From positions 87,625 through 151,624 of IMG/VR virus record IMGVR_UViG_3300037258_000301: a stretch of 64,000 nt of DNA. One strand, written 5' to 3'. The DNA comes from a virus. Positions 13,745-61,877 of this stretch are shown here, one piece after another. Both the position numbers and the translations under genes were made by a program. Each line of letters begins with the position of its first letter. Within the stretch, counting starts at the first letter, position 1. Below the pieces are notes generated by a model that saw nothing but the letters and a program-made list of their open reading frames with translations, was not told the DNA's origin and did no database searches.

Positions 13745-13774
13745 CTTGGTCGACTCAGGGCAATGACGGACACT
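13745..13774 (+). promoter_or_regulatory. Phage promoter element copy (TTGGTC-17-GACACT)
   Basis: CTTGGTCGACTCAGGG...GACACT, 17-bp spacer; lacks the GTCACCA +1 motif. Confidence 0.6.
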
Positions 13775-13812
13775 GGTCAGCAGAGAGATCACTACCCATC
13801 CTGGAGCGCGTC

Positions 13813-14319
13813 ATGTACGACCTCGACCAATTCGACGACGGGGACAACCCCGAGTTCAGATACCCCCTGTTCACCCACGAGCAGCTCATGTCGGTGCCGA
13901 CCGAGCCGATCCCCACGCAGTCCCTTCCGACTGTGCGAATGTCACCACCTCTCGCCCCGGCGATGGAGGTTTACACCGGTCAGGACGCTCAGCTTTCCAC
14001 TCGTGAGCTGATGTGGGGCCTGATGGTGCTGGGGACGATTGCGCCACTCGTGGGGGTGCTCGCCGATGGCTTCCTGGGCTTCCTCGTCGGCACCCTCGTG
14101 GGCTTCGCGCTGGGGAGCGGTGCCACCATCGCCCGTTACCTGCGGATCAAAGCCATCCGGGCCGGCCGTACCGACCTGGAGTTCAGTCAGGCCGAGGTCA
14201 AGACGGAGACCGTCCTGGGGGTTCTCGTGCTCGTCTTCAGCATCCTGTCCGTGGCCAGTTATGTCGAACGCCGCCATGTCCGCCTGATCGCTCGTGAGAT
14301 CCAGCGTGGTGGCCGGTGA
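13813..14319 (+). CDS. Membrane protein
   Basis: About three hydrophobic helices; GGAG RBS before ATG 13813. Confidence 0.65.
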   Translation: MYDLDQFDDGDNPEFRYPLFTHEQLMSVPTEPIPTQSLPTVRMSPPLAPAMEVYTGQDAQLSTRELMWGLMVLGTIAPLVGVLADGFLGFLVGTLVGFALGSGATIARYLRIKAIRAGRTDLEFSQAEVKTETVLGVLVLVFSILSVASYVERRHVRLIAREIQRGGR

Positions 14320-14759
14320 CCGCGCGCATGAGGTTCGTGCTGTGTACCGGTGGAATATTCCTGCTGGTACTGGCGGCGGTCGTACTCGCTCTGTTGCTGC
14401 CGATCCCTGCTGCCACCCCGAGCACGCCCCCGCTGGCTCAGACCGCGACACCCACACCGACCCCGACCAGCACTTGGGGGCTCATCGAAGATCTCGACAC
14501 GGCGGGGCTTCCGCTGTTGAGTACGAAGGCCACCGTGACCGAGTATCAGCGGGAGACCTACACCGAGGCCGCCGTGGCCAAGGCGCCGTGCACGGTGGCC
14601 GCCGAGGGCGGTTCATGGTCGATCATTCTCAGTCTGGACGAAGAGCTGCCGGTGGGGCCTACTCAATACGGTCAGATGGTGGCGATCGGCATCCGGGACG
14701 AGTGTCCGCGCTATCTGGCCGTGGTCCCGCCGGACTGGCTACCGTCTCCGACGTCGTGA
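14316..14759 (+). CDS. Membrane-anchored/secreted protein
   Basis: N-terminal hydrophobic helix, PT-rich linker, Cys-containing C-domain. Confidence 0.6.
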   Translation: MTARMRFVLCTGGIFLLVLAAVVLALLLPIPAATPSTPPLAQTATPTPTPTSTWGLIEDLDTAGLPLLSTKATVTEYQRETYTEAAVAKAPCTVAAEGGSWSIILSLDEELPVGPTQYGQMVAIGIRDECPRYLAVVPPDWLPSPTS

Positions 14760-14762
14760 CCC

Positions 14763-14808
14763 CTTGGTGGTGTCAGGGTGGGTTGGTAGTCTCTGGTGTG
14801 TCACCAAC
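14763..14808 (+). promoter_or_regulatory. Phage promoter element copy (TTGGTG-17-TAGTCT, +1 GTCACCA)
   Basis: -35 at 14764, -10 at 14787, GTCACCA at 14800. Confidence 0.8.
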
Positions 14809-14838
14809 TCCTCATCCCCAAACCAAGGAGTGATCCCC

Positions 14839-16842: not shown

Positions 16843-16870
16843 AGCACGGTGAACACAGTTTGACCCCCTG

Positions 16871-16906
16871 ACGACGACCTCGCCTACCCGCGAGGTCGTC
16901 GTTTTT
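16871..16906 (+). terminator. Intrinsic terminator
   Basis: 13-bp stem acgacgacctcgc/gcgaggtcgtcgt, 6-nt loop, then tttt. Confidence 0.85.
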
Positions 16907-16966
16907 GCGCTGTGTCCGTACCGGCGTCGCCCCCGTAATCAGCGACATCACACTTTTCCTGGAGGA

Positions 16967-17658: not shown

Positions 17659-17673
17659 CCGTGAAGGTGACCT

Positions 17674-17718
17674 CTTGGTGTTGTCAGAGTGACTCGCTAC
17701 ACTGAGCCAGTCACCAGC
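17674..17718 (+). promoter_or_regulatory. Phage promoter element copy (TTGGTG-17-TACACT, +1 GTCACCA)
   Basis: -35 at 17675, -10 at 17698, GTCACCA at 17710. Confidence 0.75.
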
Positions 17719-17742
17719 TCCACCCCCATCACGGAGGTCATC

Positions 17743-18830: not shown

Positions 18831-18843
18831 CTAAGGACGCCCC

Positions 18844-19170: not shown

Positions 19171-19182
19171 GAGGACCTCTTC

Positions 19183-21024: not shown

Positions 21025-21026
21025 TC

Positions 21027-36503: not shown

Positions 36504-36505
36504 CC

Positions 36506-38476: not shown

Positions 38477-38506
38477 CTTCGTCGACTCAGGGATTTCTTC
38501 TACCCT
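38477..38506 (+). promoter_or_regulatory. Phage promoter element copy, probably giving a leaderless mRNA
   Basis: TTCGTC(38478)-17-TACCCT(38501) with GACTCAGGG spacer; ATG lies 7 nt after the -10. Confidence 0.6.
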
Positions 38507-38513
38507 GATCGCC

Positions 38514-44186: not shown

Positions 44187-44187
44187 C

Positions 44188-44520: not shown

Positions 44521-44527
44521 ACGACCT

Positions 44528-44569
44528 CTTGGTGGAGTCAGGGCCTCACGCTAGTGTTCTGCCGTCACA
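44528..44569 (+). promoter_or_regulatory. Phage promoter element copy (TTGGTG-17-TAGTGT, +1 GTCAC)
   Basis: -35 at 44529, -10 at 44552, GTCAC at 44564. Confidence 0.75.
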
Positions 44570-44629
44570 CGCTCTCTGGATGTCAGGAAGCTCCTGACAC
44601 ATTCCCATCCCCCGTGGAGAGGTCCATTC

Positions 44630-45661: not shown

Positions 45662-45666
45662 TAGTT

Positions 45667-45705
45667 CCCGAGGGGGAGCATTCGATGAGGGTGCTCCCCC
45701 TCGGG
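45667..45705 (+). terminator. GC-rich hairpin terminator
   Basis: cccgagggggagca/tgctccccctcggg, 14-bp stem just after the stop. Confidence 0.7.
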
Positions 45706-45847
45706 GTCACTTCCGAGGAGCCCTAAGATGATCATAATGACGACTCGCCAGTTTCTACTCCGGGCGGCCTTGGTCGCCCTGTCCTTGTCCACGCTGCTGG
45801 GGGTCGGGGCCATGTGGGCCCAGGCCAACCACCTGATTCCTTGACCT

Positions 45848-45893
45848 CTTGGTGGACTCGGGGCATCGAGCTATCCTGGTTTTTGTCACCAGC
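45848..45893 (+). promoter_or_regulatory. Phage promoter element copy (TTGGTG-17-TATCCT, +1 GTCACCA)
   Basis: -35 at 45849, -10 at 45872, GTCACCA at 45885. Confidence 0.8.
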
Positions 45894-45914
45894 TCCACTG
45901 CCCCGGAGGCACCC

Positions 45915-46601: not shown

Positions 46602-46634
46602 TTATCCACAGGTGGGGATGAGGGTGTGGATAAC
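46601..46634. promoter_or_regulatory. DnaA-box cluster (two perfect, one degenerate)
   Basis: TTATCCACA at 46602-46610 (+); TGTGGATAA at 46625-46633 (perfect box on -); TGGGGATGA at 46613-46621 (2 mismatches, -). Confidence 0.7.
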
Positions 46635-46642
46635 ACTCTACT

Positions 46643-46678
46643 CAGAGTGGGTGCCGAACTATTTTGGTACCCACTCTG
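46643..46678 (+). terminator. 16-bp hairpin
   Basis: cagagtgggtgccgaa-ctat-tttggtacccactctg with two G-T pairs. Confidence 0.55.
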
Positions 46679-46827
46679 CCGCCGATCTCTTTGGATGGTA
46701 AGAAGGCGCATGTTCATCATGGTGGATCACGCCCCGGACCCCGGCGTGTCACTTGGTCGCATTGGCCTGATCATCACATCATGAAGCATTCATTTCATAT
46801 CGTCCCCCGTACCTGAAAGGACACTCC

Positions 46828-47232
46828 GTGGTTGACCAAATCACAACGCGCCGCTTGGACGACTTGCACGCGCTCAACAACGAGAATGTCGAGGCCGACC
46901 AGCGGTATAGCTTCACTTTCGACGGCGCACCGCTCCAACTCGACCTGACGTCAGAGAACGCGACCGAGTTCGAGCGTGTGCTACGGCCTTACCTGGATGC
47001 GGCCACTCCCGTGCAGAAGGCCGCCACCGCGACGATCACGCCCAAGTCCAAGATCTCCTCCACGCGGCCCGCCGGCACGGGCGCCCGGAAGATCTCCAAG
47101 GCCACGGCGGCACAGATCCGTCAGTGGGCACTGGACAACGGCATGGTCTTGAAGCAGCAAGGTCCGCTGCCTCGGGACGTCAAGGAGAAGTACGCGGCAG
47201 CTCAGGGCATCAGCGTCGACGAGCTGCACTGA
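46828..47232 (+). CDS. lsr2: Lsr2 nucleoid-associated protein homolog
   Basis: 'LDDL...FTFDG..LQLDLTSENA..F...L.PY' dimerisation domain; 'IRQWALDNG...GPLP..V.EKY' DNA-binding domain. Confidence 0.85.
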   Translation: MVDQITTRRLDDLHALNNENVEADQRYSFTFDGAPLQLDLTSENATEFERVLRPYLDAATPVQKAATATITPKSKISSTRPAGTGARKISKATAAQIRQWALDNGMVLKQQGPLPRDVKEKYAAAQGISVDELH

Positions 47233-47238
47233 TGGAGA

Positions 47239-47278
47239 GGCCCCGGAGCGCGTCATCCCCATGCGCGGCTCCGGGGCC
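47239..47278 (+). terminator. Hairpin after lsr2
   Basis: ggccccggagc/gctccggggcc 11-bp stem. Confidence 0.55.
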
Positions 47279-47432
47279 CTGCATCTCATTCCCACACGCT
47301 TTCCCGACAGACGCTCCCGTCGGTACTCGCCTCGCGAGACACCCCTCACGAGGAAAGGATCACGCAGCGCGGACTGTACCCGAGGACAAGATCTGCTCGC
47401 AAACGACCCACCCTCATCCCCCAAGGACACCC

Positions 47433-47666
47433 ATGGCCACGATTGTTTCCGTCCCCCGCAGCTCCACCTTGACGGTCGACGACGAATGTCCACATGGCAT
47501 GTCCGATCCCAGCTGGTGCCACCAGTGTCGGAATGCTCGCTCTGGTGGTGTACGAGTCCAAGTGCAGACCGATGGGGGCCGTTGCTGGAATTGCGGTGGC
47601 TACCTCCACAAAGGTGACATCATCACCCATGTGGAAGGCCATATCGAATGCAGTGACTGCCGTTAG
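47433..47666 (+). CDS. Small Zn-finger protein
   Basis: CPH, CHQC, CWNC, CSDC; AAGGA RBS. Confidence 0.6.
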   Translation: MATIVSVPRSSTLTVDDECPHGMSDPSWCHQCRNARSGGVRVQVQTDGGRCWNCGGYLHKGDIITHVEGHIECSDCR

Positions 47667-47736
47667 GAAGATCAACTCATACTTGCACCGGGGCAATTCC
47701 TACGGAATACCCCACTGGCAATTGGAGGGCGAACCC

Positions 47737-48072
47737 ATGCGACGTTGCTCTGTGTGTGGCGGTCTTCACGCGCGAGGGCTCAAGCAGCCTTACTGCATGA
47801 AGTGTCACGCCGCTTACATGCGCGAATGGCGCAAGACCCACCCTCCGTCAGCGGCTGAGCGATTCAGGTCGAATTGTCGGAGCTACACCCGGGTACTGAT
47901 CAAGCGGGGGCACCTCAAGGTCGAGCCATGTGAGGAGTGTGGTGGGCCCTTGGTTCAGGCGCATCATTCGGATTACACCAACCCGAGGCTCGTTACCTGG
48001 CTGTGCACGAGACACCACATCGCTCTTCACCAGCGCCTACGCGCTCAACAACAGCTCATCGAGGAGATGTAG
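47737..48072 (+). CDS. HNH-type endonuclease-like protein
   Basis: 'PCEECG...QAHHSDYTNPRLVTWLCTRHH..LH'. Confidence 0.7.
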   Translation: MRRCSVCGGLHARGLKQPYCMKCHAAYMREWRKTHPPSAAERFRSNCRSYTRVLIKRGHLKVEPCEECGGPLVQAHHSDYTNPRLVTWLCTRHHIALHQRLRAQQQLIEEM

Positions 48073-48299
48073 TGGATCCAAATTCGATCAATGCCTATCC
48101 TGGGACGTCAGGGCAGATCGACACCAATGCCCTGGACACGCCTGAGGTGCCGCTGCCAGTGCTGCCCTGCGCCCGTACCGGCTGTACGGAGGACGGCACA
48201 CTCATGGCCAAGGTCTCCGGTGCCCCGGAGTACACCTTCTGGTGTGTCGCTCACGTGCCGGCACCGCCTATCCTCACCCCTCCGGCCAGCCAGTCATGA
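48072..48299 (+). CDS. Hypothetical protein
   Basis: GAGGAG RBS; TAGTG overlap. Confidence 0.5.
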   Translation: MDPNSINAYPGTSGQIDTNALDTPEVPLPVLPCARTGCTEDGTLMAKVSGAPEYTFWCVAHVPAPPILTPPASQS

Positions 48300-48526
48300 G
48301 CGGCAACGTCTATGTCTGCCTCGGCCACAGCGACTTCGTCCTGAGCGCCCGGCAGCGCACCATCGAGGCCCTCAACGCGACCGTGGTGCTCGACTTCGGC
48401 CCGGATGACGAGCTGATCGGCGTTGAGGTGCTCGACGCGGTACGGGTCGCCTGGAACGGCAAGACGATGCCACTGCCGGGAGGTGAGGAATGCTCGACGA
48501 CCGAGACCGACTCATCGCCATCCTGA
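48296..48526 (+). CDS. DUF2283-like protein
   Basis: 'VYVCL...VVLDFGPDDELIGVEVLDA'. Confidence 0.6.
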   Translation: MSGNVYVCLGHSDFVLSARQRTIEALNATVVLDFGPDDELIGVEVLDAVRVAWNGKTMPLPGGEECSTTETDSSPS

Positions 48527-50989
48527 TCCGCAAGCTCGGTGGCCGGGTCGAAGTCGGCGACAAAGAGCTGCTCGACGTTGACCACTACACCATGGTTACC
48601 CGGGAAGATATCTTCACCAACGTCACCGTCTACACCGTCCAGTACCCCGACGACGACCAGCAGCCGACCTCGCCCGTGCATGTCGAGCCTAAGCAGCTGA
48701 TCGCCGCACTCATGGACTATGCCCGCGAGGTCGACCTCACCTTCTCGCGCGACTATCTCGAAACGCAGATGGAGCGCTATGCGGTCGAGGTCACCGATAA
48801 CCATGTTGCCACTGGTATCCCACATCGCCCTGGGCGGATGGCCCCGGCCGTCCGGATCCGCATGTGGGAAAAGCGTGGCAAACAGCCACCCAGCAAGTTC
48901 AACACTCCGCCACCACCTATCTCCCCTGTCCAGGCCCAGGCCACCCGTCTGTCCCCTCTTGAACTCGAAGGATCGACCGATGACTGAGCGCCGCGCCTTC
49001 CGTGAGAAGTACCAAAACCAGGTCGCTGAGCTGGGAGAAGGTGAAGATCCCCCCGCTGACGAAGGGGAGATCGAGCAGGCCCGGCGCCTGATCCAGGACG
49101 ATGCCCAAGGCTTCACCGTCAACGAGCACGACCTCATGAAGGCTCGGGTCCTCGTGGAGCGTTACGAGACCCAACTTGCTCTCATTCGCCGGGTGCAGTT
49201 GCGGGTCTGTGAGTACTCCACCTCAGTGGTCGACGCGGTGGAGGTGATGGAATGCCTCGGCATCGCCCCGAAGCAGGCAGTACTGCCCACCAAGGTCTTC
49301 TTCTCGCCGGCCACGATGCTCGACTCGTCCGTGGCGAAGCATCATGTCTGAACGAAGAACCGTGGTCCTCACCGGAGGACCCATCCTCGTCTTGGTGCCG
49401 CACCTCGTGCTGGCCGAGCAGATCGCCCGCCATGACGAACTCGGCGACTGCTCGATCTGTCGGGGCACCGGCACCGTCGTGATCCTCATGTGCCTCGCCG
49501 GAGAGCCCCACACTCCGGTCAAGGCATGCCCGCCCTGCGCCGGCACCGGCTGGCTCGATCAGGTCGAACGCACACCCCACGTCCCACCCGTTCAGCATCA
49601 CCTCCCCACCCTGATAGAAGGTGCATCCCCATGCTTCTCTCGCTCGCCCTGACCCTGACCATCCTGGCTCTCGTCGTGCTGCTCCTCGGTAGCTGCGGGT
49701 ATTGGACCCCCGATACCCTGCGTCACATGAAGATCTCCCTTGCCCACCTGGGCACCCGCGTCACCGCCCTGTTTCGGCGTCTCTCGGCGACCACTGACGA
49801 AGCCCCCTGTGCCTGCCTGGCCTGCCACCACTTCGTAGGTGTCGACCTGTCAGTGCGCTCCAAGCACAAACTGCTCCCGCGCCTGGCTGGTGAGGCCGCT
49901 GAAGGGCTGGCCGCTGAGATCGAAGAGTTCCTGGGGGCTGCCACGTGAGCAAGCGCAAAAACAACGAGATCATGAAGTTGTATGGAGTCGACATTCCGGC
50001 GTGGAGAGATCCCGTGGATGAAGAAGAGCACCCGCTGCCTGACGTGCTCACCACGCTCCTGCGCCTGCATGCTGCCCTGACCAATCAGGTGTGCGCCCTG
50101 CCGGCGCTCAACCGGGCTGTGGAGGCCGTCAGTGACTAACGAGCCGCCTGCACTTCGTCCCATCGATTCCGCTGACCTCGTTGACCTCATTGACGTCCTT
50201 GCCGCCATGAAGGTGGACATGGACCAAGCAGAGCACGAGGCGCAACGCAGCTTCCTGCTCGATGTGCTCGCCGCTGACCCTGACTGTCCGGTCTGCGGGC
50301 GTAAGGGCATCCCTGTCGCCGATGACCGAGGTATCTCCTACCACCACGACGGACGCGCCTTCCACTGTCGTGTCACCCCGAAGCTTCTGGAGCGCCCATG
50401 AGTATTTTGTACCGCCCCTACACGATCACCATGCATCTTTCAGGGATGGATAGCGTCACCACCCAGACCGCCGACGACAGCGCTCAGGCCGCCAAGGCCG
50501 TTGCCCTGATCCAGCAGGCCATGTCTCGGTCAGGCAATGCGATGTTGGCGAACTACATGAAGAACATGAACGTCATCATCCGAGCCGAGAACATCATCAT
50601 GGTGATATGCGAGCCCGCGCTCACCCTCGCCGATGTCGAGGCCGCTGAGAGGGAGTTGGCGCATGAGCTACGTGACTGATCTGACCATGATCTTCCCGAA
50701 CAGGGAGGACGCCAAGCGGTTTGAAGCCCTCTACCGCGACGAGACCAGTTATGGTCTCGTACCGTTGGCGTCTGAAGGCAGCAACACGCCCGGCAATTAC
50801 GTCTATACCTTCGGATTGAACTACATCACTCGTTTCCCGGAGCTGATGGAAGCCCTGGAGCGTGGGCCCTGGGCACGCGGCACCGTCCTTTACATCTGTC
50901 ACGCGGGAAGCGATCCGGAGATCACCGTCTTCGGCCCGGTCGTCGGTATGCCTGAACCGAACGGCGGTGAGAATGACCTATCCGTCTGA
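48490..50989 (+). other. Run of small coupled hypothetical ORFs (48490-48987, 48980-49351, 49344-49652 with CxxCxGxG x2, 49631-49948, 49945-50139, 50132-50401, 50398-50679, 50663-50989)
   Basis: Contiguous + strand ORFs with start/stop overlaps. Confidence 0.6.
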
Positions 50990-51003
50990 GTAAGCTGACA
51001 TGC

Positions 51004-51237
51004 GTGTCCCCCCTCCCCGACGTGTCAGCCGCGCACTGCCTTGACGAGGTCGAAGCTAGCCACGACGAGCTGCTGCTGGCCCGCAGGAGCGTCGAGAGCG
51101 CCGAGTATGCCCTTGTCAAGGCAATCACCCTTGCGGTCAACCATCACTCCTCCTGGGCAGCGATAGCGACCGCCATGGGCATCCGCCGGCAGACCGCCTG
51201 GGATTGGTATCAGCGTCACCACAACCCCACATCTTGA
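51004..51237 (+). CDS. Small HTH DNA-binding protein
   Basis: 'SWAAIATAMGIRRQTAWDWY' actinobacterial HTH pattern. Confidence 0.6.
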   Translation: MSPLPDVSAAHCLDEVEASHDELLLARRSVESAEYALVKAITLAVNHHSSWAAIATAMGIRRQTAWDWYQRHHNPTS

Positions 51238-51251
51238 GGAGCGTCACCACC

Positions 51252-51709
51252 ATGAAGATCTTCGACGAGGACGACTTCGTCCAGCAGATCAGCAATGCCG
51301 GCGAAGCGTTCGCCAACGACCTCAACGACGAGATAGAGGGCAAGTTCGGCTTCTCCGTCGGCGACTACGACGAGGACGTGGACGCCTACTCGGTCACCGC
51401 GTCCTGGGAGCCGTGTCTGGACGAGGACGAAGAGGTCGAAGGTCGGGATGGCGACTACGGGCCTGTGCAGAAGCAGCGCTTCTGGCTGGTACCGATGTCC
51501 CCCGACCAGGTCAACAAGCCGTCGGTCGACGTCTCTGAGGGTGCTCAGGTATGAAGATCACCCTGACCATCCAGGACGACGTGGACAACAAGAACCGGGC
51601 CGCCTGGTTTGTCGAAGAGACGCGCGCGAGTGCCACGTTCTCGTTCATGTCCGAGGACGGCGACGATGTCGAGGTACAGATCGACGACGTGAGCATCCAG
51701 TGGTGGTAG
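51252..51709 (+). other. Two acidic hypothetical ORFs (51252-51554; 51551-51709)
   Basis: GAGGAG RBS and ATGA overlap; the second ORF (52 aa) is not in the ORF track. Confidence 0.55.
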
Positions 51710-51716
51710 GAGATGC

Positions 51717-51762
51717 CTTGGTCGGCTCGGGGTTCACCGGTAGTCTCCGGGGTGTCACCAAC
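51717..51762 (+). promoter_or_regulatory. Phage promoter element copy (TTGGTC-17-TAGTCT, +1 GTCACCA)
   Basis: -35 at 51718, -10 at 51741, GTCACCA at 51754. Confidence 0.8.
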
Positions 51763-51785
51763 CACCGCACACCCCGGAGGCCACC

Positions 51786-52839
51786 GTGCCGATGCTCACC
51801 CTCTCGCGCTATGCCCACCACGACGACGACGAGCATGATGCTCGCCTGAACGGCTTCGAGGCTGGCTGGTCTCACGCCAACTACGTCGAGGCGTATGGCT
51901 GGAGTGCGGACTCCCAGATGCCTGACCGCTACCGCAGGGTGTCCGGTGTGTGGCGCGACGCCTACCAGGAGGGCAAGGACGAGTTCGAGGCTCAGACCGA
52001 GAACGAGGAGATCTACGGGCACGACTGGCGTGGCTGAGTGTGTCCCCTCGCAAGAAGCTCGCCGGCCGCCCACGGTGCACTCCGTGTGGCGGCCTTGCGA
52101 TATTCCCTGACCGGATCGCCGCCGAGTTCCAGGGTGTCTTCTGGGGCCTCCGGGCCTACCCGTGCCCGCACCGTCGCAATCGCTGGCACCTGACCAGCGT
52201 CCCCGAGGAGGACCAGCAGTGACGATCCGACAGAGCCTTCAGAACAGCCCGATGCGAGCGAGTCTGCGTGAGCGAGACGCCATCCTGCGCATGATCGTGG
52301 GCGCGATCGAACCCATCACCGATCGACGAGTGTTCGACCCGATCATCGACCTGATCCAGAACCACCCTGGCCACCCGTTCCTCGAAGACGACGGGGTGGC
52401 GCTCATCCTGCGCTGCCAGAACCCCGACTGCTACCCCACCACGTGGCCCTGTCGTCCCCTGCGGGACTTGGCCGGCCGTTTGCGCGTGAGGTTGCCGTGA
52501 CAAGCAGTGACACCCTCGAACGAAAGGGTTGATCCCGTGACCGCAGCGCTGACCCATTCACCGTTCTGGCGTCGTCCCGAGCGCGATGCACACCGCGAAG
52601 CACATCCACGCACCCTCATGCCGCGCGAGGAGGCCCTGGAGCGACTGGAGGGCCTCCGGCAGGCCGTCCGGTTCTTCGTACCCTGCCAGTACCGGGCCGG
52701 GTATACAGACGTGATCGGCGCTCCCTGTTCGCACTGCGGTCACACCGACTTTGCGCATGGAGGAGTTCACCAGCCCGACGTGCCGGCCTTCTGCATGGCC
52801 TGCGCCCTGCTGATCACCTGGCTGGAGATGAACTCATGA
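51786..52839 (+). other. Small hypothetical ORFs (51786-52037, ~52030-52222, ~52219-52500, 52507-52839)
   Basis: Coupled ORFs downstream of a promoter copy; several Cys/His clusters. Confidence 0.55.
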
Positions 52840-52930
52840 TCAGTACTGATAAGCAGGACGCACAGTACGCTCGGGGCTCTGACCAGCGTCAGGCCACCGA
52901 GACGGGTCTGACCTCACCCGAGGAGCGACC

Positions 52931-53722
52931 ATGACGGATGTCGAGGGCCGGACTCTGACCTTGCATCTTCCCACCGGCCCCACGCTGGTGTTCGACACCG
53001 ACGAGCGCACGCTGACCGTGACCTCCCGCACCCCCGTTTCCTCGCAGGAGATCCGCGTCAACCTCACCGACAGCGCGCTGCGGTCGCTGACCAGTGCACT
53101 GACCGAGGGTGTGCGTTTGGCGGATGAGCATCGTGACCAGCTGCGGTGGGCCATGCAGGAGAAGCGAGCCGATGAGCACGCAACCAGGTACGAGAGGGAG
53201 GCCTTCATGGTCTTCACCCACGCTCGGCCGCTCGGCGACGACATCCCCCAGCGGATGGAGACGATCATTCACCGGCGCACCTGTCTGGCCGCTCCTGCCA
53301 TCTCTGAAGCCGTCACCGCGCAGGACGTGAGTGACTTGGTCCGTCGGCATGCTGGCACGGTCACGCATCTGGTCGAGTTCCATATCGGCTGCTTCATGAA
53401 CCCTGATGAAGGCACCACCGTCACCGTGTTCGACGCCGGTATGACGTCGTCGGCCCTGCTCCATGAACACCTGGCGCGCATAGAGCAAGAGCACATTGCC
53501 CAAGTACGTGCCGCCAGGGGACGCAAGATCACCAGCGTGCCCAACGTCAACGGCCTGGATGACTCTCTCGACGAGACCGTGGTCGGGCACGACGGTAAGT
53601 ACCTGCCCACTACCCCCGACGGCAAGAGGTCGAAGGTGCAAGCCTCGGCGTTCGACACTCTCGGCGACGATGTGCCTGAAGCGATGGACGCCCGGCTCGA
53701 CGACTCCGTCACGCTGTCGTAA
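52931..53722 (+). CDS. Hypothetical protein
   Basis: GAGGAG RBS; 263 aa. Confidence 0.65.
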   Translation: MTDVEGRTLTLHLPTGPTLVFDTDERTLTVTSRTPVSSQEIRVNLTDSALRSLTSALTEGVRLADEHRDQLRWAMQEKRADEHATRYEREAFMVFTHARPLGDDIPQRMETIIHRRTCLAAPAISEAVTAQDVSDLVRRHAGTVTHLVEFHIGCFMNPDEGTTVTVFDAGMTSSALLHEHLARIEQEHIAQVRAARGRKITSVPNVNGLDDSLDETVVGHDGKYLPTTPDGKRSKVQASAFDTLGDDVPEAMDARLDDSVTLS

Positions 53723-53739
53723 CCCCCGCCTTCCTACCC

Positions 53740-53785
53740 CTTGGTGGTGTCAGGGCTTCGCGATAGTCTCTGAGGTGTCACCAGC
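53740..53785 (+). promoter_or_regulatory. Phage promoter element copy (TTGGTG-17-TAGTCT, +1 GTCACCA)
   Basis: -35 at 53741, -10 at 53764, GTCACCA at 53777. Confidence 0.85.
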
Positions 53786-53806
53786 TCTACTTCCTCGGGA
53801 GTCATC

Positions 53807-56800
53807 ATGACCATTGCTCAACGTCGCGGCATCGCCCACTACGCCGGCAGGGACATCCCCGCTCCCCGCGCGAACACCGTGGCCTTCCTCGCCCGGCTCG
53901 ATTACATCCGCAAGAACCGCACCACCGGCGCATACGCACTGACGACCCTGGGCCGTGAGCTGTCCCTGCTCGCCGGCTTCTTCGAGGAAATCTGATCATG
54001 GCGACCATTCCTCGTGCTCGGCTGGTGCAGATCACTACCGCTGAACTGATCGAACAGTACAACTTCGCGATCAGTAGCCATGCGGGTCGGAACACCAATT
54101 TTTCTCCTCGACAGCAGCGGATCAACTACATCGTTGACTTGCTCTCGGCTCGTGCCGACAACGATGACGCAGCGGCCGTCCAGTGGTTTGAGGAGACGTG
54201 ATCATGAAAGACAATGAGTCCGTGCGTGGAGGAGACCGGTTTCACTCTTGGATTCGTACCGAAAGAACTGTTCTATTCCGCCAGCAATGCGATGAAGGAC
54301 TGATCATGAATTTCTTCGAGCACCGGTATGTCAACATCGACGTAGCGGCCAACCAGATCACCCTCGCCCCGAAGCCGGGCACGATCCGCAAGCGTGTGCT
54401 GCCGCTGGTGGTGGCCGATCCTCTCCAGTACGCCACCGCCACCCTGGACGACCCAGGCGCCGTCAAGCGCGGTTTCACCCTCACCACGGGCATGATCGGT
54501 CGCAACAAGGACAAGGGCAGCGTGTTCCTCACCGTCATGATCGGGCAACGCGCCGAGGTGGTGGAGATCCCCCGCAAGTACGGTGCGCAAGCCCGCGAGG
54601 CCGTGGCCACCATCAACGCAGTGGGAAGGTAGATCATGAGCAACGAGCCGCATCTGTACGTCTCGCCTGAGGTGCGCACAAGTCAGCGTGTCTGTGCTGA
54701 GTGCGGGCTTCCTGAGGACACTCCCCTCCATCACGTCGTGTCTGCGGGTTGGTGCCAGTGGGACGACGAGGATCACGACTGGACCCCGGGCGATATGGAG
54801 TGCCGGCGCTGCGGTGCTGACCTGTCCGAGTGGAACGAGGAGTCCTGATGGGTGGTCGGATCGTTTATCACGCACCCCGGTGGATTCCTGCTGAGCTACG
54901 AGTGGATGCCGAGGGCAACACCAAGCCTGGCTTCATCTGCATGCATGAGTTGGAGAATGGCAGTGGTCCATGCGGTAGCAATGTTTTCGCCCCCGAAGAT
55001 GGGATTGACGATCATTCCTGCTTTTGTGAGACGTTCTGGCCGTATCTCGCCGAGGACCACCGATACCTTCCCCACGATGATCTGCTGAGGTTCAACAGTC
55101 TTCGGGGGCATCTGACCATCCCCTATGCCGAGCTGCTCGCCGTCCTCGGCCAACCTCACCACGTTCTGGAGGGCGACAAGGTTCGGGTCAGGTGGGCGTT
55201 CGACACTCCGTTCGGGCCCGTCACGATCTACGACTGGAAGAGCAACCTGCCCGTCGAGAGGGTTGTTGACTGGAGCTTCGGTGGCCGTGACTACGACGCG
55301 GTTCAGACGTTTGGTGCGTACTACGGCTGGAAAGTGTATGACTCTGACTCTTCTCTCAGCTGGTGAAAGGTATTTCGATGAGCAAGCCAAGCAAGCCACG
55401 CAAGCTGTGGGCAACCAAGTACGTCATCCCGGGCGCCCCCTATCTCCGACACCCTTCCGAGGCGGCCGTGTGGCGCTCCGTGAATGACGAGCGCGCCCGC
55501 TGGAAGAGCGGCATCCTGCGCACTCGGCACCTGACCGTGTACGTGGACGAGCGGGACGGCCAAGGCTGGCAGATCTACGCCATGGTCGACCTGAATGAGG
55601 AGATCGGATGAGCGACGTGGCAGATGACAAGGAGTTCCAACAGCGGGTAGTGCGCTACCTGCTGCCAGGTGACGTGCAGGCCCTCCTGCGCTTCGCCGAG
55701 TTGATGGAATCGATCAATGGCGCGGCAACCCGTTCCAAGGAGGGCCGCTTCCTCTCTCGGTTGGTCGCCGGCACCGGTACGGGGATAGCTGGACGGCTCG
55801 CCACCGACGCGGCCAGGATCCTGAACAGCTCGGCGCAGCGGCCATGACCCCCGAAGATCGCGCACGAGCAGACATCGTCGACTACTGCTTGACCAAACGT
55901 GACCGCTGGCACGGGTATGACGCGATACCCGGACAGATCGATCACGATCTCGCGAACGCGTACGCATCTGTCGCGGAGGCCCTGACCGAGCAGCAGCCCG
56001 AACCGGTGAGCGAAGACCACGTGCGCATGTTCATTCAGGACTGCGCAGAGGACGCAGACCTCAACACGGATGGCGACGACGCGGAAGCGCTCGCGGTCGC
56101 TTTCACGAACCGCTACATCATCACCCGCAAGCCGCAGGGAGACGCCTGATGTCTGAACCGACCGACGACTGGGACACCCCCGAATGCGGTGGTGAACCCG
56201 TCGAGCAGCAGCTCGAATCGGTGAGCGAAGACGATCTCACTGCCCAGATCACTTACGAGATTGCCGGATGGATCGACATCGACACGGCGCAGCGGCTCGC
56301 GCGTGGGCTTCAGCGGTGCTTCCACATCACTGCTCGCCCTGTGGCTTCCCCGACCGAGGAGACGAAGTGAAGGAGCACCGGTCAATGGGCGCAGCAGTCG
56401 GTTCCGCAATGGAGGCCAACGCGCGACGCGCCGCCGAAGTTCCCGTCCCGTCTGTCCCTGTGGAGTCCGGAGACACCACCAGCTACCGGGCGCGGCTCAC
56501 GTCGAAGCTGTCCGTCGAGTTCTTGCTGCGGCACATCGATGATGTCACCCAGCTCGTAGACGCCGTGCTCGCTGTCCGAGACACCGAGCTGGAATACCAC
56601 CTGAGCGGTGAGTTCGATGAGTGATTACCGGGAGCAGGTCGCGCGAGCGCTGGCCGAGAAGTTCACCCCCGACTACCAGAGCAACCCGAAGTTCGACCGC
56701 AAGCGAGAGCGCGCGTGGTTCGACGCAGGCAATGCAGACGAGGAGCCCGCGAACTCCGAGTACATGCCGATGCCTATGTCCGAGCGGGTTCGGCTCGATC

Positions 56801-59144
56801 TGATGGTGACATTCACCGCCGCAGATGGTCACCTTTCCATCCGTCCGGCCAGGATTCGCGAAGCCGTTGAGGTGATCGCAGCCGTCCGGGACGCCGAGCT
56901 GGAACGGCTACGGGCGATCATGAGTCTGTCGTCGACCGACCAGCAGTACTACCCCGGAACACCGGCACACGCCGTAATGACTGAGCTGGAACAGCTACGG
57001 GCCGAGTACGCCGTGGCACATGAGGCAGTTTGCACTATCCCCGGCTATCAGCGGGACATTGAGCGGTTGCGTGCTGAGCTGACCGGCCTGCGGGCTGAGC
57101 ATGCGCAGATGCTTGCCGACGCCCAGGGCAACGACGAGGCCCACCTCGCCGACGCGACGGCTGTGGCCGAGGAGAACGGGCGCCTGCGTGCCGAGTTGGC
57201 CACGATCGATCGAGGCAAGGTGGATGCGATCACTGATGCCGTAGCCAGCTGGCAGCAGCGTGTGGTGTCACTGAAGGCCGAGTTGGCTGGGCTGCGGGAG
57301 CGAGCCGTGTTGCTGCCCGAGGACTGGTCCGGCTGTATCCGGGACTGCGTGAACCAGCCGACCGCGAACCGGTTGGTGGCGCTGATCGAGTCGTGGCGTC
57401 CTTCCGAGTCTGCACCCTCCGGCTGGCCGTGCAAGTGCGGCACCGACGAAGAGGGCCGGATCGTTGGCGGACGCAACGGCTACGACGAGCTGGCTGACCG
57501 TATCGAGCAGGGAGACGGCAAATGAGCGACACCGTGATGCTCCACTGGTCGGCCAACAGCATCAGTCAGGCCGACGAGGAAGAGGACTCCGGCATCCCGG
57601 TCGCCGAGTGGAAACAGATGACCGACGACGAGAAGGAAGCGGTCCTGATGGATTGGGTACACGAGCGCGTCAGCATGTGGACGGAACCGGAATGAGCGAC
57701 GAGGAGACGTCCCCCGCGACCTGGGAGGGCGGCCACGCTCTCGTCATCGAGTACGGCGACTGCGATTTTTTCGCCCGCTGCCAGTGCAACGTCGACTTCG
57801 GTTCGGCTCGACCAGACCAGGGCTGGGACGCGTTCGGTACGGCCTGGGAGAAGCACGTCATGACGGAGGTACAACCATGAGCGACCGAGACGAACTGGAC
57901 GAGTTGCGCGGCCTGCTCTGGATAGAGTTGCAGGATATCGCAGCCAAGCAGGAAGACATCCCTGACGACGTGTACTGGCTGAACCTCGCGGCCGCTGCTG
58001 CGAACGCGGTCCGCAAAGCTGGTTGGCGTCGGTCCGCCGTGACCCCAGAACAGCTACTAGCAGTGGTGCAGATCCTCGACGACGTGCCCGCCGTGCGCTT
58101 TCCTGAGACGTGGATGCGAAAGGCACGGGACATCGCTCGCGCGTTCAGGTTGGAGGTTCCCAGTGAGTGATCGAGACGACCTTGAGCGATCGCTATCACG
58201 CATGGTCAAGGCAGCCCGCGAGGAGGAGTGGACCGACAACCGCATCATGCTTGCCTCAGCGGCGTTCATGACGCGCGTCGACGTGTTGCGGCCCACCGTG
58301 ACCCCAGAACAGGTCGAGGCGGCAGCGCAGGCATTGGCCAATCTCGACGGCGACCACTTCGAAGACTGCGGCGACATGTGGCAGCAGGCATACCGACGGA
58401 ACGCCCGCGCCGTGTTCACTGCCGCTGGCCTGTCCGAGAACAAGAAGGAGAACTGATGGGTGTCATCCGTAAGACCGCATCCCTGTTCACCCTGGGCATC
58501 ATCCGGCCCTCCAGCAAGAAGCAGCGGGTGGCCAAGAAGACCCTCCAGGCGCAACGCCGCACGGCAAACGCCACGGAGCGTCTGGCCAGCCATTACGAGC
58601 ACGACTCGAATCTACGAGGCCGTCCCCATGAATGATCGAGCAGACCTGGAAAGGCTGATCTGGGAGGCGAGCAACCGCAATCCGTTCCCCGAGGCCGCAG
58701 ACATCGCCGAGGTGCTGTGGGAGGACGGCTGGCGTCGACGTGAGGAAGGGAGAAGCGATGTGTCGGAGATCGAACGCCTGAGGGGGCAAGAGGCGCCCAC
58801 TCAGCGGAAACCAACACCCTCTCAGGTGTGTTCATGTGGGGACTCACGTTGGGCGGCCATCGGTACCTGCCCACCTCGTGGCCATTCGGAGTACGCGCTG
58901 TGTCCTCAGCGGCGAACAATCGCAAGCTGATCAAGTCATGGGAGATGTCATGAACCACGTAGAGATCGAAACGCTCGTCGACGACCTGCGCGAAGCCAAT
59001 GGTCAGGAGGTCGTGCTTGACATCCAGATCGGCGAACTGACCTACGAGCTGGGCCGCATAGTCAGGGTGAACCCACCCGAGGTCGAGCTGGTCGAGCTGC
59101 TGCGCTACCTCGCCGACGGCATTGAGGAGGTCGGAGCGGGATGA
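53807..59144 (+). other. Long run of small ORFs (53807-53995, 53998-54201, 54306-54632, 54636-54848, 54848-55366, 55378-55611, 55608-55847, 55844-56149, 56149-56370, 56367-56624, 56617-57525 coiled coil, 57522-57695, 57692-57880, 57877-58170, 58163-58456, 58456-58635, 58628-58930, 58950-59144)
   Basis: Tightly packed + strand ORFs with RBSs and overlaps; no function assignable. Confidence 0.6.
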
Positions 59145-59145
59145 G

Positions 59146-59191
59146 CTTGGCGGTGTCAGGGCCTATCGCTACGATGGGTCCTGTCACCAGC
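59146..59191 (+). promoter_or_regulatory. Phage promoter element copy (TTGGCG-17-TACGAT, +1 GTCACCA)
   Basis: -35 at 59147, -10 at 59170, GTCACCA at 59183. Confidence 0.8.
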
Positions 59192-59215
59192 TCCTGCTTC
59201 TCCCGGAGGTTCCCC

Positions 59216-59779
59216 ATGTCGGACATCACCACTCGCCTCGTCCAGTCGGTCTATGACCACGCATTGGCCCACTACGAAGAGGGCTGGGACATGGTCGTGG
59301 AGACCATGGGCGAGGTGTGGATCGCCGAGATCGTCAAGGGGTGCCGCTCGGTCGACGGCGCGATCAAGCGCGTGTCGTATCACACCAACCTGTGGGTTGA
59401 GCGTCAGGCCAACGCCGGGGTTCCCGAGGCCATGCGCGAGCTGGAGCTGGGTCGCCAGGACATGCTGCGCGACCTGTCCGACGAGAGCGAATTCTCCCTG
59501 AACCTGCCGGCCGAGACTGATGACGGCGTCGTGTGTGGCGCTTGCACCTCGGACTCTCGTCGGTCCGGTAGCCGCTCCCAGGCCCGTCACGCCACTGTTG
59601 CGGCCGTTCGGCTCTGTGCCCAGCGCCGCGAAGAGTGTGCCGCCCAGGAGCAGGACGTCAACGCCGAGTACCAGATCGAGCTTGCCCACGAGCGTTACCT
59701 GGAGAACGGTGGCCGGCACGCCGAAGCCATCTCCGCCGACCTGGAGGACGAGCGTCGCCGCGAACAGGGCGCCTGGTAG
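59216..59779 (+). CDS. Hypothetical protein
   Basis: Start reassigned to ATG 59216 after GGAGG; 'HALAHYEEGWDMVVE' domain plus C..C..H..C motif. Confidence 0.65.
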   Translation: MSDITTRLVQSVYDHALAHYEEGWDMVVETMGEVWIAEIVKGCRSVDGAIKRVSYHTNLWVERQANAGVPEAMRELELGRQDMLRDLSDESEFSLNLPAETDDGVVCGACTSDSRRSGSRSQARHATVAAVRLCAQRREECAAQEQDVNAEYQIELAHERYLENGGRHAEAISADLEDERRREQGAW

Positions 59780-59792
59780 TTCTCTCGTCAAC

Positions 59793-59849
59793 AGCCCGAA
59801 CCCCTTGGTCGACCAAGGGGTTCGGGCTAGTCTTCTTCTTGTCACCAGC
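59793..59849 (+). promoter_or_regulatory. Promoter element copy embedded in a perfect 36-bp palindrome
   Basis: agcccgaaccccttggtc|gaccaaggggttcgggct (59793-59828); -35 at 59805, -10 TAGTCT at 59828, GTCACCA at 59841. Confidence 0.85.
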
Positions 59850-59876
59850 TCTTCCCTCCCCCCTCAGGAGATCACC

Positions 59877-60278
59877 ATGATCGGCACCTCCCTCGCGGCG
59901 ATCAGCGGAGTCACCTACGACCACGGTCAGCCCCGGCCCGTCGCCGGCTTCCCGATTCGTCGCGGTGCCACCACCAGCACGGTCGTGTTCGTCGACCTCC
60001 TGGCCACCGACGGCACTATCGTCTACGGCGCGCAGGTTGACCCGTCCGAACTGAACGGCATCCAGGTCGTCCCGCTTCGCAGCAGCGCCACCGACGCACT
60101 TCTCTGGAAGGTTGCGATCGAGAACATCGGTGGCTGGGGGAACCGCAGCCTGGCCGAGCTGGCATACCGCGAGGCCGGCAAGTTGGTCCAACGGGAGATC
60201 GCCGAGCAGGTGGTCCGTTCCCGCCGTGCCCCGTCTACCAGCCTGATCGCCGAGGCAGCCCTGCGGAGCGATTCCTGA
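59877..60278 (+). CDS. Hypothetical protein
   Basis: AGGAG RBS downstream of promoter copy. Confidence 0.6.
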   Translation: MIGTSLAAISGVTYDHGQPRPVAGFPIRRGATTSTVVFVDLLATDGTIVYGAQVDPSELNGIQVVPLRSSATDALLWKVAIENIGGWGNRSLAELAYREAGKLVQREIAEQVVRSRRAPSTSLIAEAALRSDS

Positions 60279-60292
60279 GCTGCTCTCTGATT

Positions 60293-60835
60293 GTGGGGAC
60301 GGGGTCGAGCCAAGTGCTCGACCCCGTCCCGCTGTCTGTTCCGGCTGACAAGTGGGATGCTGCCCCCATGACTGATCCCGATCCAGATTCCGCCGCTCTG
60401 GCCGAGTCGGACATCGTCCTGACCGAAGACGGCGAAGAGGCACTGTCCGCTCGTGCCGCGCTCGACCTGGTCAAGTCCTTGGTTGAGCTGCTCCCGCTGG
60501 AGCGACAGGTCATCACCCTGACCCCGGTGCCGCCCATCCCCGACCCGGGCACCGGCTCGAACTATCGGGCCAGCCGACGACTGCTCATCCACCCCGATGA
60601 GAAGCCTCACGTGTTCAAGAGCCCCAAGGGCAAGTGGACCGTCGACTATCAAGCCAGGACCGACGCGCCTGTACCGCTCGCGGAGGGCGTCACGCTCACC
60701 TACATCAACAGCAAGCGGCACGGTCGGTCTCTCGTGCCTTACGACACCTGGGACTTGGCCTTGGGCGCCGCGAACAAGGATGTGGAAAGCCGCTTATGTG
60801 ACTGGGTGGCCGTCAACGACGGGTTGATGGACTGA
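60293..60835 (+). CDS. Hypothetical protein
   Basis: ORF; start uncertain. Confidence 0.5.
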   Translation: MGTGSSQVLDPVPLSVPADKWDAAPMTDPDPDSAALAESDIVLTEDGEEALSARAALDLVKSLVELLPLERQVITLTPVPPIPDPGTGSNYRASRRLLIHPDEKPHVFKSPKGKWTVDYQARTDAPVPLAEGVTLTYINSKRHGRSLVPYDTWDLALGAANKDVESRLCDWVAVNDGLMD

Positions 60836-60847
60836 CTGCTCCGGGGG

Positions 60848-60892
60848 CTTGGTGAAGACGGGGTTCTGGGGGACACTGAGTGCGTCACCAAC
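60848..60892 (+). promoter_or_regulatory. Phage promoter element copy (TTGGTG-17-GACACT, +1 GTCACCA)
   Basis: -35 at 60849, -10 at 60872, GTCACCA at 60884. Confidence 0.7.
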
Positions 60893-60917
60893 ACCGCATC
60901 GAGCACCTGGAGCACCG

Positions 60918-61271
60918 ATGTATTCCGACCAGTTCGAGGGTGTGCACGAGCACACCAGCATCGCCTATGACGTGACATTCCCCGCTACCCCCGGACCCGG
61001 TGGCGAGTGGGTCGCACACTGGAAGACCTACCGCGCGCAGGCTGAGGATGCTCCCGAGACCTCGGTGGTCTACGACACCGCGATGTACAACACCTACACC
61101 TTCGTCACCCCGCAGGAGCGGCAGCGCTGGTGGCAGGTGGTGCGCAAGAACATCATCTGGTCTCGCGTGCCCCAGCCCGTGTCGGCCCGACACGGCTATC
61201 ACGTCAAGGTGGCCAAGAGTTGGCTCGACTTGGCCGAGGTGACCACCTTCCCGGAAGGTAGTGCGGCATGA
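60918..61271 (+). CDS. Hypothetical protein
   Basis: GGAG RBS downstream of promoter copy. Confidence 0.6.
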   Translation: MYSDQFEGVHEHTSIAYDVTFPATPGPGGEWVAHWKTYRAQAEDAPETSVVYDTAMYNTYTFVTPQERQRWWQVVRKNIIWSRVPQPVSARHGYHVKVAKSWLDLAEVTTFPEGSAA

Positions 61272-61840
61272 TCGCAGGATTGAACACCCCCCTTGACTGG
61301 CTGGGGGCTTACAACATCACCGTCGTGTTGGCGCTTCCCGTGATGGTGTTCGTCATGCCTTCGAACCCCAAAGCATTGGCGTGGTTTCTCACCGCCTACT
61401 TCTGGCCGATGGTCCTGTTGTGGAGTGCGCTTCGTGTGCCGATCAGGGCCATTCGGCTGCGGAGGAAGTTCGTCCCCCGCCGGCAGGGAGTCAGTCATCT
61501 CGCTCGGCAACACCACGAGGACGACAGAGAAGGGATCGAGCGGCAGGAGTCGATCCGGTTCTGGCGGCTGTTGGTCATGACGGGCACGATCGTCGAGCAG
61601 AACCTGGCCAAGGACATGCTCACCCAGTTCTTCGAAGTGCCGATCGAGACGACGGCGTCACATGCCAGACCCCTCGATCGTGTAGACGCGGGTCGGTACC
61701 TACGCCTTTGTCCAGCTTGTAACGGTAGTGGCTCGTACGGAAGACGTCTCGGTCCACTTCTGTGCCCGGCCTGCAACGGTAGTGGTTCGTACGGGCTCGT
61801 ACTGGAGTCCACCGTGCGGGAGGCCCGGGCCCCTTGGTGA
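61268..61840 (+). CDS. Membrane protein with DnaJ-type CxxCxGxG zinc finger
   Basis: Two TM helices; 'LCPACNGSGSYG' twice. Confidence 0.65.
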   Translation: MIAGLNTPLDWLGAYNITVVLALPVMVFVMPSNPKALAWFLTAYFWPMVLLWSALRVPIRAIRLRRKFVPRRQGVSHLARQHHEDDREGIERQESIRFWRLLVMTGTIVEQNLAKDMLTQFFEVPIETTASHARPLDRVDAGRYLRLCPACNGSGSYGRRLGPLLCPACNGSGSYGLVLESTVREARAPW

Positions 61841-61877
61841 TGTCAGGGGCCCGCGATAGTCTCGTGGAGTCACCAAC
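61833..61877 (+). promoter_or_regulatory. Phage promoter element copy (TTGGTG-17-TAGTCT, +1 GTCACCA)
   Basis: -35 at 61834, -10 at 61857, GTCACCA at 61869; -35 lies inside the IR cgggcccct/aggggcccg. Confidence 0.85.

Follow-up and report, generated by a model that had tools for sequence, protein, structure and literature searches.

The early promoters of large lytic phages such as T4 are read by the host sigma factor and conserve positions outside their hexamers over dozens of copies. In phages P1 and P7, C4 is an antisense RNA framed by tRNA-like parts, in which an exposed segment is complementary to the leader of a phage message and one operon is targeted. T4-type phages also carry promoter-early stem-loop (PeSL) cassettes (Arbiol et al. 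2010, PMC2839356; Comeau et al. 2014, PMC4122927), which are defined in the first of these papers as a promoter together with a constituent stem-loop and an AT-rich upstream region (PMC2839356). In Cluster K mycobacteriophages, the 13-bp word GGGATAGGAGCCC, named SAS, contains the ribosome site and ends 3-7 bp ahead of the start codon (Pope et al. 2011, PMC3203893); for SAS and the related ESAS that paper describes the function as unknown and suggests a partner that may be an RNA or a protein of the phage (PMC3203893). Here we describe a repeated promoter-like cassette, followed in most copies by a common 12-nt word that we call the tag, in a 64,000-nucleotide stretch of IMG/VR virus record IMGVR_UViG_3300037258_000301. 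This stretch, referred to as the window, comprises positions 87,625-151,624 and thereby the terminal 64 kb of one contig of 151,624 bp from soil metagenome DNA; the phage is represented by this metagenome sequence only and is read here from its DNA letters. The host is a high-GC actinobacterium and the cassettes belong to an uncultivated actinophage. The finding is of a known kind, to be compared with T4-type early promoters, PeSLs and the SAS words of Cluster K. A limited keyword search found no publication on this motif or on a phage small RNA that acts throughout a regulon on the leaders of early messages.

Anatomy, number and conservation of the cassette

The first-pass annotation of the window had listed 12 copies of the element on the plus strand, and all 12 were found where it had placed them, with the features that it described (Table 1). 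As it had also counted, GTCAC follows the -10 hexamer in 10 of these copies and GTCACCARC in nine, the two copies without GTCAC being those at 13745 and 38477. When the window was searched with the skeleton CTTGG-N8-GGG-N8-TAnnnT, allowing at most one mismatch, exactly these 12 sites were matched, all on the plus strand, against an expectation of 0.47 matches, and a count of 12 was reached in none of 100 shuffles. Since the window covers only part of the genome this list is incomplete, and widening the search to the whole genome of 151,624 bp brought out more copies. A 30-bp weight matrix found 17 sites scoring 28.2-43.4 bits, all on the plus strand, five of which lie outside the window (genome 1927, 6198, 8954, 12828 and 26393); the next-best site scored 14.7 bits and is the palindromic mirror of copy 59804. 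A relaxed pattern added genome 36717 and, with a 19-bp spacer, genome 37537, which makes 19 copies, all on the plus strand, where shuffled genomes gave none. No copy lies in genome 37.6-101.3 kb, the structural module with the head, tail and baseplate genes. Most copies start 0-29 nt 3' of the upstream stop codon, and the genes that they serve include replication genes (the helicase and its neighbours) and small open reading frames (ORFs). The first genes behind the 19 copies are mutually unrelated (no pair at E<=0.01), which supports the earlier proposal of a multi-copy regulon.

Positions in the cassette were counted from the C of CTTGG, which is position 0 and corresponds to -36. The first conserved block (block I, positions 0-15 or -36 to -21; CTTGGTSGWSTCRGGG) is fixed at nearly every letter, C0, T1, T2, G4, G13 and G15 being present in all 17 matrix-found copies, and among its conserved parts are the C at -36, which never varies, and the word TCRGGG, which occupies -26 to -21. 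Spacer positions 16-21 and the stretch from the -10 to the tag carry no information content. The -35 begins with TTG in 18 of the 19 copies and with TTC in the remaining one, 18 copies have a 17-bp spacer and a single copy has one of 19 bp, and the -10 is TAnnnT in 17 copies and GACACT in two. A G at position 22 (-14), present in 17 of 19, turns this into an extended -10 of the form GnTAnnnT. The 12-nt tag, GUCACCARCUCY in the message (GTCACCARCTCY), is found in 17 of 19 copies with the G of GTCAC 7-8 nt 3' of the -10; the gap between the two is 6 nt in seven copies and 7 nt in ten and its sequence is not conserved. Tag position 8 is G in ten tags and A in seven. Upstream of position 0 there is just a weak GACCC (9-11 of 17 copies), and the AT content of the 25 nt upstream of the cassettes is 0.40 compared to 0.376 for the genome, without an AT-rich element. 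The leaders, if counted from the G of GTCAC up to the first codon, are C-rich; 16 of them measure 28-40 nt, and the remaining one has 66 nt. They end in GGAG, often extended to GGAGGTCATC or GGAGTGATC, which is a strong Shine-Dalgarno sequence and always stands 16-27 nt 3' of the tag. When the leaders were folded, none of 15 did better than its own shuffles (z -0.76 to +1.66) and they are therefore unstructured. Strong hairpins occur at only three of the 19 copies (genome 12828, 147428, which is window 59804, and 149457); an upstream terminator was rejected as a general feature of the cassette.

The cassette is conserved in one close relative, a metagenome contig of 4,554 bp (L129), whose helicase is 72% identical to that of the window and which is syntenic across two cassettes. 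It carries cassettes at both orthologous places, 5' and 3' of the helicase gene, corresponding to copies 14763 and 17674. In the cassette 5' of the helicase, 12 of the 16 letters of block I and 11 of the 12 letters of the tag are the same, the -10 retains just its three defining letters, the spacer is identical at 2 of 8 positions, and the stretch from the -10 to the tag has diverged. In the cassette 3' of the helicase, block I agrees at 12 of 16 and the tag at 9 of 12 letters, and the invariant letters of the -10 are retained. The 12-nt sequence at the predicted transcript start, which had been proposed as a shared 5' end, is thus found in the orthologous cassettes of L129 as well. Because the variable positions differ freely between the copies, whose similarity ends at the conserved positions, because the genes behind the copies are unrelated and because the L129 cassettes keep the same positions, we conclude that selection acts on specific positions and that the copies are not recent duplicates.

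L129 also bears on the gene starts that the first-pass annotation had corrected from the position of the element. The starts at 45915, 59216, 59877 and 60918 were picked by independent ORF scoring as well. At 17743 and 61900 the scoring went against it and preferred longer ORFs that open inside the promoter; we judge the two proposed starts to be the better calls nonetheless, because both sit just 3' of GGAG and because L129 preserves GGAGGTCATCGTG with a 4-nt indel upstream of it.

In the searches beyond L129 the same words were not met with. A search of metagenomes with the helicase alignment gave at least 80 loci and, among the matches listed, only L129 was close. Helicases 72-74% identical to that of the window (P0002 with 32,336 bp of contig, P0003 with 148,641 bp, and P0005) and others of 50-60% identity are also on record. 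In IMG/VR the alignment found 27 loci with helicases 33-47% identical, none of which had this motif (best 16.3 bits, in a coding-like context), and a search of IMG/VR with the helicase alone found no relative. Motif scans of IMG/VR returned six loci and 117 stretches that were all single chance matches when re-scored with the matrix, the best having 18.1 bits and no tag, and a strict 22-letter pattern had no match in metagenome contigs and none in genome contigs. Distant relatives have the same TTGnnn-17-TAnnnT skeleton with different, lineage-specific words. Two complete relatives, G001 and G008 (the IMG/VR records behind loci L209 and L224), have multi-copy cassettes of their own on that skeleton. 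In G001, TTGCTA is embedded in a palindrome and the leader word GACCGCACYGGAGGTCA is common to the copies. In G008 there are about 20 copies of TTGTAC-17-TAGAGT (e.g. 31018, 43044 and 62442), with the palindrome CTCCTGC-AAT-GCAGGAG in the spacer of some and the word ATCCTTGTAG in that of the others, and the leaders share the words CAGCA and GACTCCCCGGAGG, the latter at the end of the leader. The constant frame across the relatives points to the host housekeeping sigma, and the lineage-specific extras point to phage-specific partners. As to other features of these relatives, G001 has 40 tRNA genes, and GCCAGAGAGAC, which is conserved 5' of the helicase in several distant relatives, was considered as a multi-copy tag and dropped with 2-7 occurrences per record, near the control counts.

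A probable explanation of these observations is that the cassettes form an early or middle promoter-leader regulon that is read by the host housekeeping sigma (SigA/HrdB type) and that gives its messages a common 5' tag. The actinobacterial housekeeping -10 has the consensus TAnnnT, often with a G at -14, and the counts of TTG, 17-bp spacer, TAnnnT and G at -14 given above agree with the housekeeping-sigma geometry that had been claimed for the window copies. A Pfam scan of 223 called proteins of the genome found no sigma factor, RNA polymerase, anti-sigma or WhiB-like protein. In such a regulon, TTGnnn-17 bp-GnTAnnnT would be what the SigA/HrdB-type sigma reads and each cassette would be the transcription-start unit for non-structural (early or middle) genes, 19 in the genome and 12 in the window. 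Transcription would most likely start at the G of GTCAC, 6-7 nt past the -10, and 17 of the 19 messages would then open with the same 12-nt 5' end, followed by the short, C-rich, unstructured leader and the strong Shine-Dalgarno sequence. The extra letters, namely C-36, TCRGGG and the tag, probably serve phage-specific control because they have no role in ordinary sigma recognition.

A tRNA-like RNA with a complement of the tag

This leads to the question of what could read the tag. A gene for a 144-nt tRNA-like RNA lies outside the window at genome 37182-37325. It has the acceptor halves CCCCCAG and CTGGGGG, a T-arm TGAGG-TTCAAAT-CCTCA and a terminator hairpin just 3', and its fold has a z of -3.1. 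The gene stands about 430 nt 3' of cassette 36717 and just 5' of cassette 37537, and from this position we infer that the RNA is probably made from a cassette-class unit. When the plus strand of the genome was searched for the complement of the tag, a single site within one mismatch of GGAGCTGGTGAC was found, GGAGTTGGTGAC at 37270-37281, and it lies inside the tRNA-like RNA. The segment of the RNA, GGAGUUGGUGAC, is the exact complement, at 12 of 12 positions, of the A-variant tag GTCACCAACTCC of the helicase cassette, copy 14763. The number of exact anti-tag 12-mers expected on the plus strand is 0.038 (first-order model, analytic), and in the non-coding 7.4% of the genome it is about 0.003. 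The complementarity spans exactly the 12 conserved letters and not their flanks. A U of the RNA faces tag position 8 (A/G) and a G faces position 12 (C/U), which makes both common variants pairable, and nine of the 17 tags can pair over the full 12 nt by Watson-Crick or G-U pairs. The GUGACG part, which meets the invariant GUCAC, lies in a predicted hexaloop with an unpaired probability of 0.75-0.93, and opening the anti-tag site would cost 5.4 kcal/mol compared to -21 kcal/mol for the duplex.

The tRNA-like RNA is the best candidate for a partner of the tag, and it is possible, though we propose it only tentatively, that the two pair functionally. Equally conjectural is the wider proposal that the tag is an address read by this tRNA-shaped RNA, which would switch a whole early regulon of up to 17 units. 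A stable RNA made from a cassette-driven unit would pair with the first 9-12 nt of the messages of up to 17 early transcription units. Pairing would either shut off the tagged messages, through RNases that act on double strands or depend on the 5' end, or would protect and stabilise them jointly, and the untagged cassette 13745 and the leaderless, equally untagged 38477 would escape this control. If this were true, an orphan tRNA-like RNA would gain a function and a single phage small RNA would exert post-transcriptional control over a regulon. The exact complement of the tag in this orphan RNA is the part of the analysis that is worth following up. Rfam has no family for the small-RNA region and none in the whole window, and in the one DNA run listed, from which this DNA may stem, the small-RNA region returned just the source contig and three short unrelated pieces.

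Several observations weigh against this picture of tagged housekeeping promoters and their RNA partner. The hexamers are weak compared to the E. coli consensus, TTGGTG and TAGTCT each agreeing in three of six letters, and a strict sigma-70 scan with an E. coli-type consensus found no promoter-like site in 44001-64000. In the L129 cassette 3' of the helicase there are 10 nt, and not 6, from the -10 to GTCACC, that is, four extra bases, and the tag may therefore not form the exact 5' end in every case. The motif with its number, strand, position and position-specific conservation is observed, as is the complementarity; which sigma is used, where transcription starts, how strong and how early the promoters are, and any RNA-RNA pairing in vivo, is what we infer from the DNA sequence. 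As for the small RNA, the link is one 12-nt match in one genome that was found after the fact, and pairing is partial in the other tags, covering the first 9 nt in six of 17 and having internal mismatches in two of 17. Duplexes of the RNA with 24-nt leaders had a mean of -26.2 compared to -20.6 (sd 4.1) for random 24-mers, which is about 1.4 sd better, and since the leaders share one seed these energies count as one event. Homologues of the tRNA-like RNA were found neither by BLAST in five related virus records nor in two pattern scans of IMG/VR, and in G001 and G008 no plus-strand stretch that reaches 12 nt is complementary to the words which their own leaders share.

Alternative explanations and candidate regulators

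That block I, the block from +1 to +12, or both are an operator for a phage repressor or activator is compatible with promoters read by the host sigma, and the first-pass annotation had indeed postulated a dedicated regulator site. The sixteen nearly invariant base pairs of block I exceed what a -35 hexamer needs, the words are lineage-specific, and the palindromes of G001 and G008, over the -35 or in the spacer, look operator-like. A convincing dyad or a supported regulator did not emerge. Block I is asymmetric, and the dyads that can be drawn, TGAC-N11-GTCA and CCCCT-N10-AGGGG, lean on weakly conserved upstream letters, namely A, C and C at -4, -3 and -2, which are found in just 9-11 of 17 copies. 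No candidate regulator rose above its family threshold, and the three that had been suggested for binding did not gain support. The one at 18462-18830 matches nothing. The 77-aa protein at 51004-51237 would favour an operator through its helix-turn-helix matches, but these are weak and all sub-threshold. The third, at 34189-34920 (ORF 34264-34920), resembles an HNH/NUMOD homing endonuclease; it was also considered as a sigma factor and dropped, its Sigma70_r4_2 match being sub-threshold (E 0.02) and its PHROG and Atlas matches indicating HNH/NUMOD. An operator function is, on balance, a possibility that we regard with some doubt.

A phage factor could also act through the polymerase, if the cassettes were middle promoters with block I as an activator box in a sigma appropriation like that of T4 MotA/AsiA. 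Conservation from -36 to -21, which extends past the reach of sigma region 4, would suit this, as would a set that drives replication genes plus small ORFs. We consider it unlikely, as TTG stands at the canonical 17 bp in 18 of 19 copies and the relatives share the skeleton with different words; moreover, no MotA, AsiA, sigma or anti-sigma was found by Pfam or PHROGs, and no separate, simpler class of early promoters was seen when the other intergenic gaps were inspected by eye. The tag might instead work in cis, with no small RNA involved, and affect translation or stability as an enhancer or as a mimic of the anti-Shine-Dalgarno sequence. It resembles the 3' end of 16S rRNA, GAUCACCUCC, it keeps its place ahead of a strong extended Shine-Dalgarno sequence in every tagged copy, and in the predicted fold of copy 14763 ACUCCU pairs with AGGAGU. 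Such pairing of tag and Shine-Dalgarno sequence is seen in few predicted folds, however, and with no leader among the 15 folding better than its shuffles an action in cis is improbable. The least likely explanation to us is that the cassette, like PeSLs, mainly serves recombination or is left over from the movement of cassettes, and that its extra letters were homogenised by gene conversion and do not regulate anything themselves. Multi-copy promoter cassettes heading unrelated small genes do resemble the PeSLs described in PMC2839356, but gene conversion would have homogenised the spacer and the stretch from the -10 to the tag too, and both carry no information; the orthologous cassettes of L129 retain the same positions, and the stem-loop that is a constituent of PeSLs is present in three of 19 copies only. 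Promoters of the host housekeeping sigma with a selected 5' tag remain the explanation that we favour.

Individual copies, genome setting and comparison with described cassettes

Table 1. Cassette copies and gene modules of the window (window coordinates; modules from Pfam)
Feature	Position	Strand	Predicted transcription start (G)	Tag	First codon	Remarks
Copy 13745	13745..13812	+		none	ATG 13813	-35 TTGGTC, TCAGGG, -10 GACACT; divergent gap adjoining minus-strand glycosyltransferase gene
Copy 14763	14763..14838	+	14800	GTCACCAACTCC	GTG 14839	before DinG-like helicase gene
Copy 17674	17674..17742	+	17710		GTG 17743	TCAGAG variant
Copy 38477	38477..38513	+		none		compact; -35 TTCGTC, -10 TACCCT; directly 3' of upstream stop codon
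Copy 44528	44528..44629	+	44564	GTCACACGCTCT (variant)	ATG 44630	66-nt leader
Copy 45848	45848..45914	+	45885	GTCACCAGCTCC	ATG 45915	TCGGGG variant; DUF6011 protein
Copy 51717	51717..51785	+	51754	GTCACCAACCAC	GTG 51786 (or ATG 51792)	
Copy 53740	53740..53806	+	53777	GTCACCAGCTCT	ATG 53807	top score, 43.4 bits
Copy 59146	59146..59215	+	59183	GTCACCAGCTCC	ATG 59216	-35 TTGGCG
Copy 59804	59804..59876	+	59841		ATG 59877	block I within hairpin
Copy 60848	60848..60917	+	60884	GTCACCAACACC	ATG 60918	GACGGGG spacer word, -10 GACACT
Copy 61833	61833..61899	+	61869	GTCACCAACGTC	ATG 61900	
Tail genes and intein-bearing SNF2 helicase	1-9.3 kb					
Minus-strand block	9.3-13.7 kb	-				
Replication module	13.8-46 kb					DinG-like helicase, 5'-3' exonuclease, DnaB, primase, DnaE, RecA
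About 45 small genes without known function	46 kb-end					continues through the junction to genome 0-16 kb

Some copies depart from the common plan (Table 1). In copy 38477 an ATG lies 7 nt 3' of the -10, and therefore a leaderless message is predicted for the gene behind it (38514-38999, 161 aa). In the sole long leader, 44564-44629, an 8-9-bp hairpin (TGTCAGGA...TCCTGACA) separates the tag from the ribosome site. In copy 59804 the -35 and the spacer block lie inside a perfect hairpin of 15-16 bp (59793-59828) that is followed by a T-rich run; since the hairpin is built from block I, terminator and promoter overlap here. A second strong terminator-like hairpin on the plus strand is found at window 60296-60330. 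The -35 of copy 61833 is flanked by a 7-bp inverted repeat, GGCCCCT/AGGGGCC. A partial cassette without the -36 to -21 block is seen at genome 13265-13341, before a gene at 13342, and consists of a -10 TATGGT, 6 nt, GTCACCACTTCC and a ribosome site. Another word, CCCCGTAATCAG, which contains CGTAATC, has two copies (window 16934 and genome 49216), both intergenic and shortly 5' of a gene start; with just these two copies it was dropped as a second promoter class, and the pair may be a minor second promoter type or due to chance.

The ends of the contig (genome 1-177 and 151448-151624, the latter being window 63824-64000) overlap by 177 bp with 99.4% identity; therefore the map is circular and the small-gene region crosses the junction. 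The genome has a GC content of 62%, and ORF scoring called 228 genes in it, 212 of them on the plus strand. By tblastn, a tail protein is 25% identical to that of Gordonia phage Pupper and of large mycobacteriophage myoviruses, and DnaE and the helicase are about 30-32% and 25-33% identical, respectively, to known phage proteins. A megablast of 10 kb against phage records gave no match. To judge from these comparisons, the proteins of this phage are only distant kin of those of known phages. Among the neighbouring genes, the SNF2-family helicase gene (window 6893-9274) is split by an intein that includes a domain of the HNH endonuclease type (Pfam Intein_splicing, HNH_3), and Pfam finds inteins also in the DinG-like helicases of some relatives. 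An Lsr2-like nucleoid protein with dimerisation and DNA-binding domains is encoded at window 46828-47232 and is preceded by a 226-bp gap free of cassettes. Two tRNA genes, one for Ile-GAT, called with 93 nt, and one for Cys-GCA, are located at genome 10690-10926 among the small early genes.

Repeated families of early promoters are familiar in large phages, and for uncultivated actinophages they give the most direct sequence-based view of the transcription programme. Here the cassettes delimit about 19 early units in the genome, put gene starts right and indicate a single gene whose message would be leaderless. Less ordinary is that selection retains letters which sigma does not read, namely the word in the spacer and the opening 12 nt of the transcript. 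The cassette differs from known cassettes in that it has no constituent hairpin and conserves both a word in the spacer and the 12-nt start of the message. Compared to the early promoters of T4, its extra conserved positions are TCRGGG and C-36, the host is a high-GC actinobacterium and the -10 is of the TAnnnT type. Going by the description of PeSLs in PMC2839356, the overall logic is alike, with many host-sigma early promoters and Shine-Dalgarno sequences directly after upstream stop codons; the genes that follow are small, unrelated and for the most part unknown, and a few copies stand in the replication module. The definition given in that paper does not cover the present cassettes, because they have no AT-rich upstream element (0.40 vs 0.376) and the stem-loop is at three of 19 copies only, being absent in 16; conversely, the conserved spacer word and the 12-nt transcript start lie outside that definition. 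With SAS and ESAS, as they are characterised in PMC3203893, the tag has in common that it is a short asymmetric word, in one orientation, before unrelated genes in the non-structural part of an actinophage genome. It differs from them in its place, the predicted +1, from which 28-66 nt lead to the start codon, and in being coupled to a full promoter, and its sequence is unrelated to GGGATAGGAGCCC, which sets it apart from the SAS family as that source delimits it. Finally, the tRNA-like RNA resembles C4 in being, as predicted from its sequence, a tRNA-like phage small RNA with an exposed segment complementary to the leader of a phage message, and it differs from C4 in that its complement matches a tag common to up to 17 transcription units.

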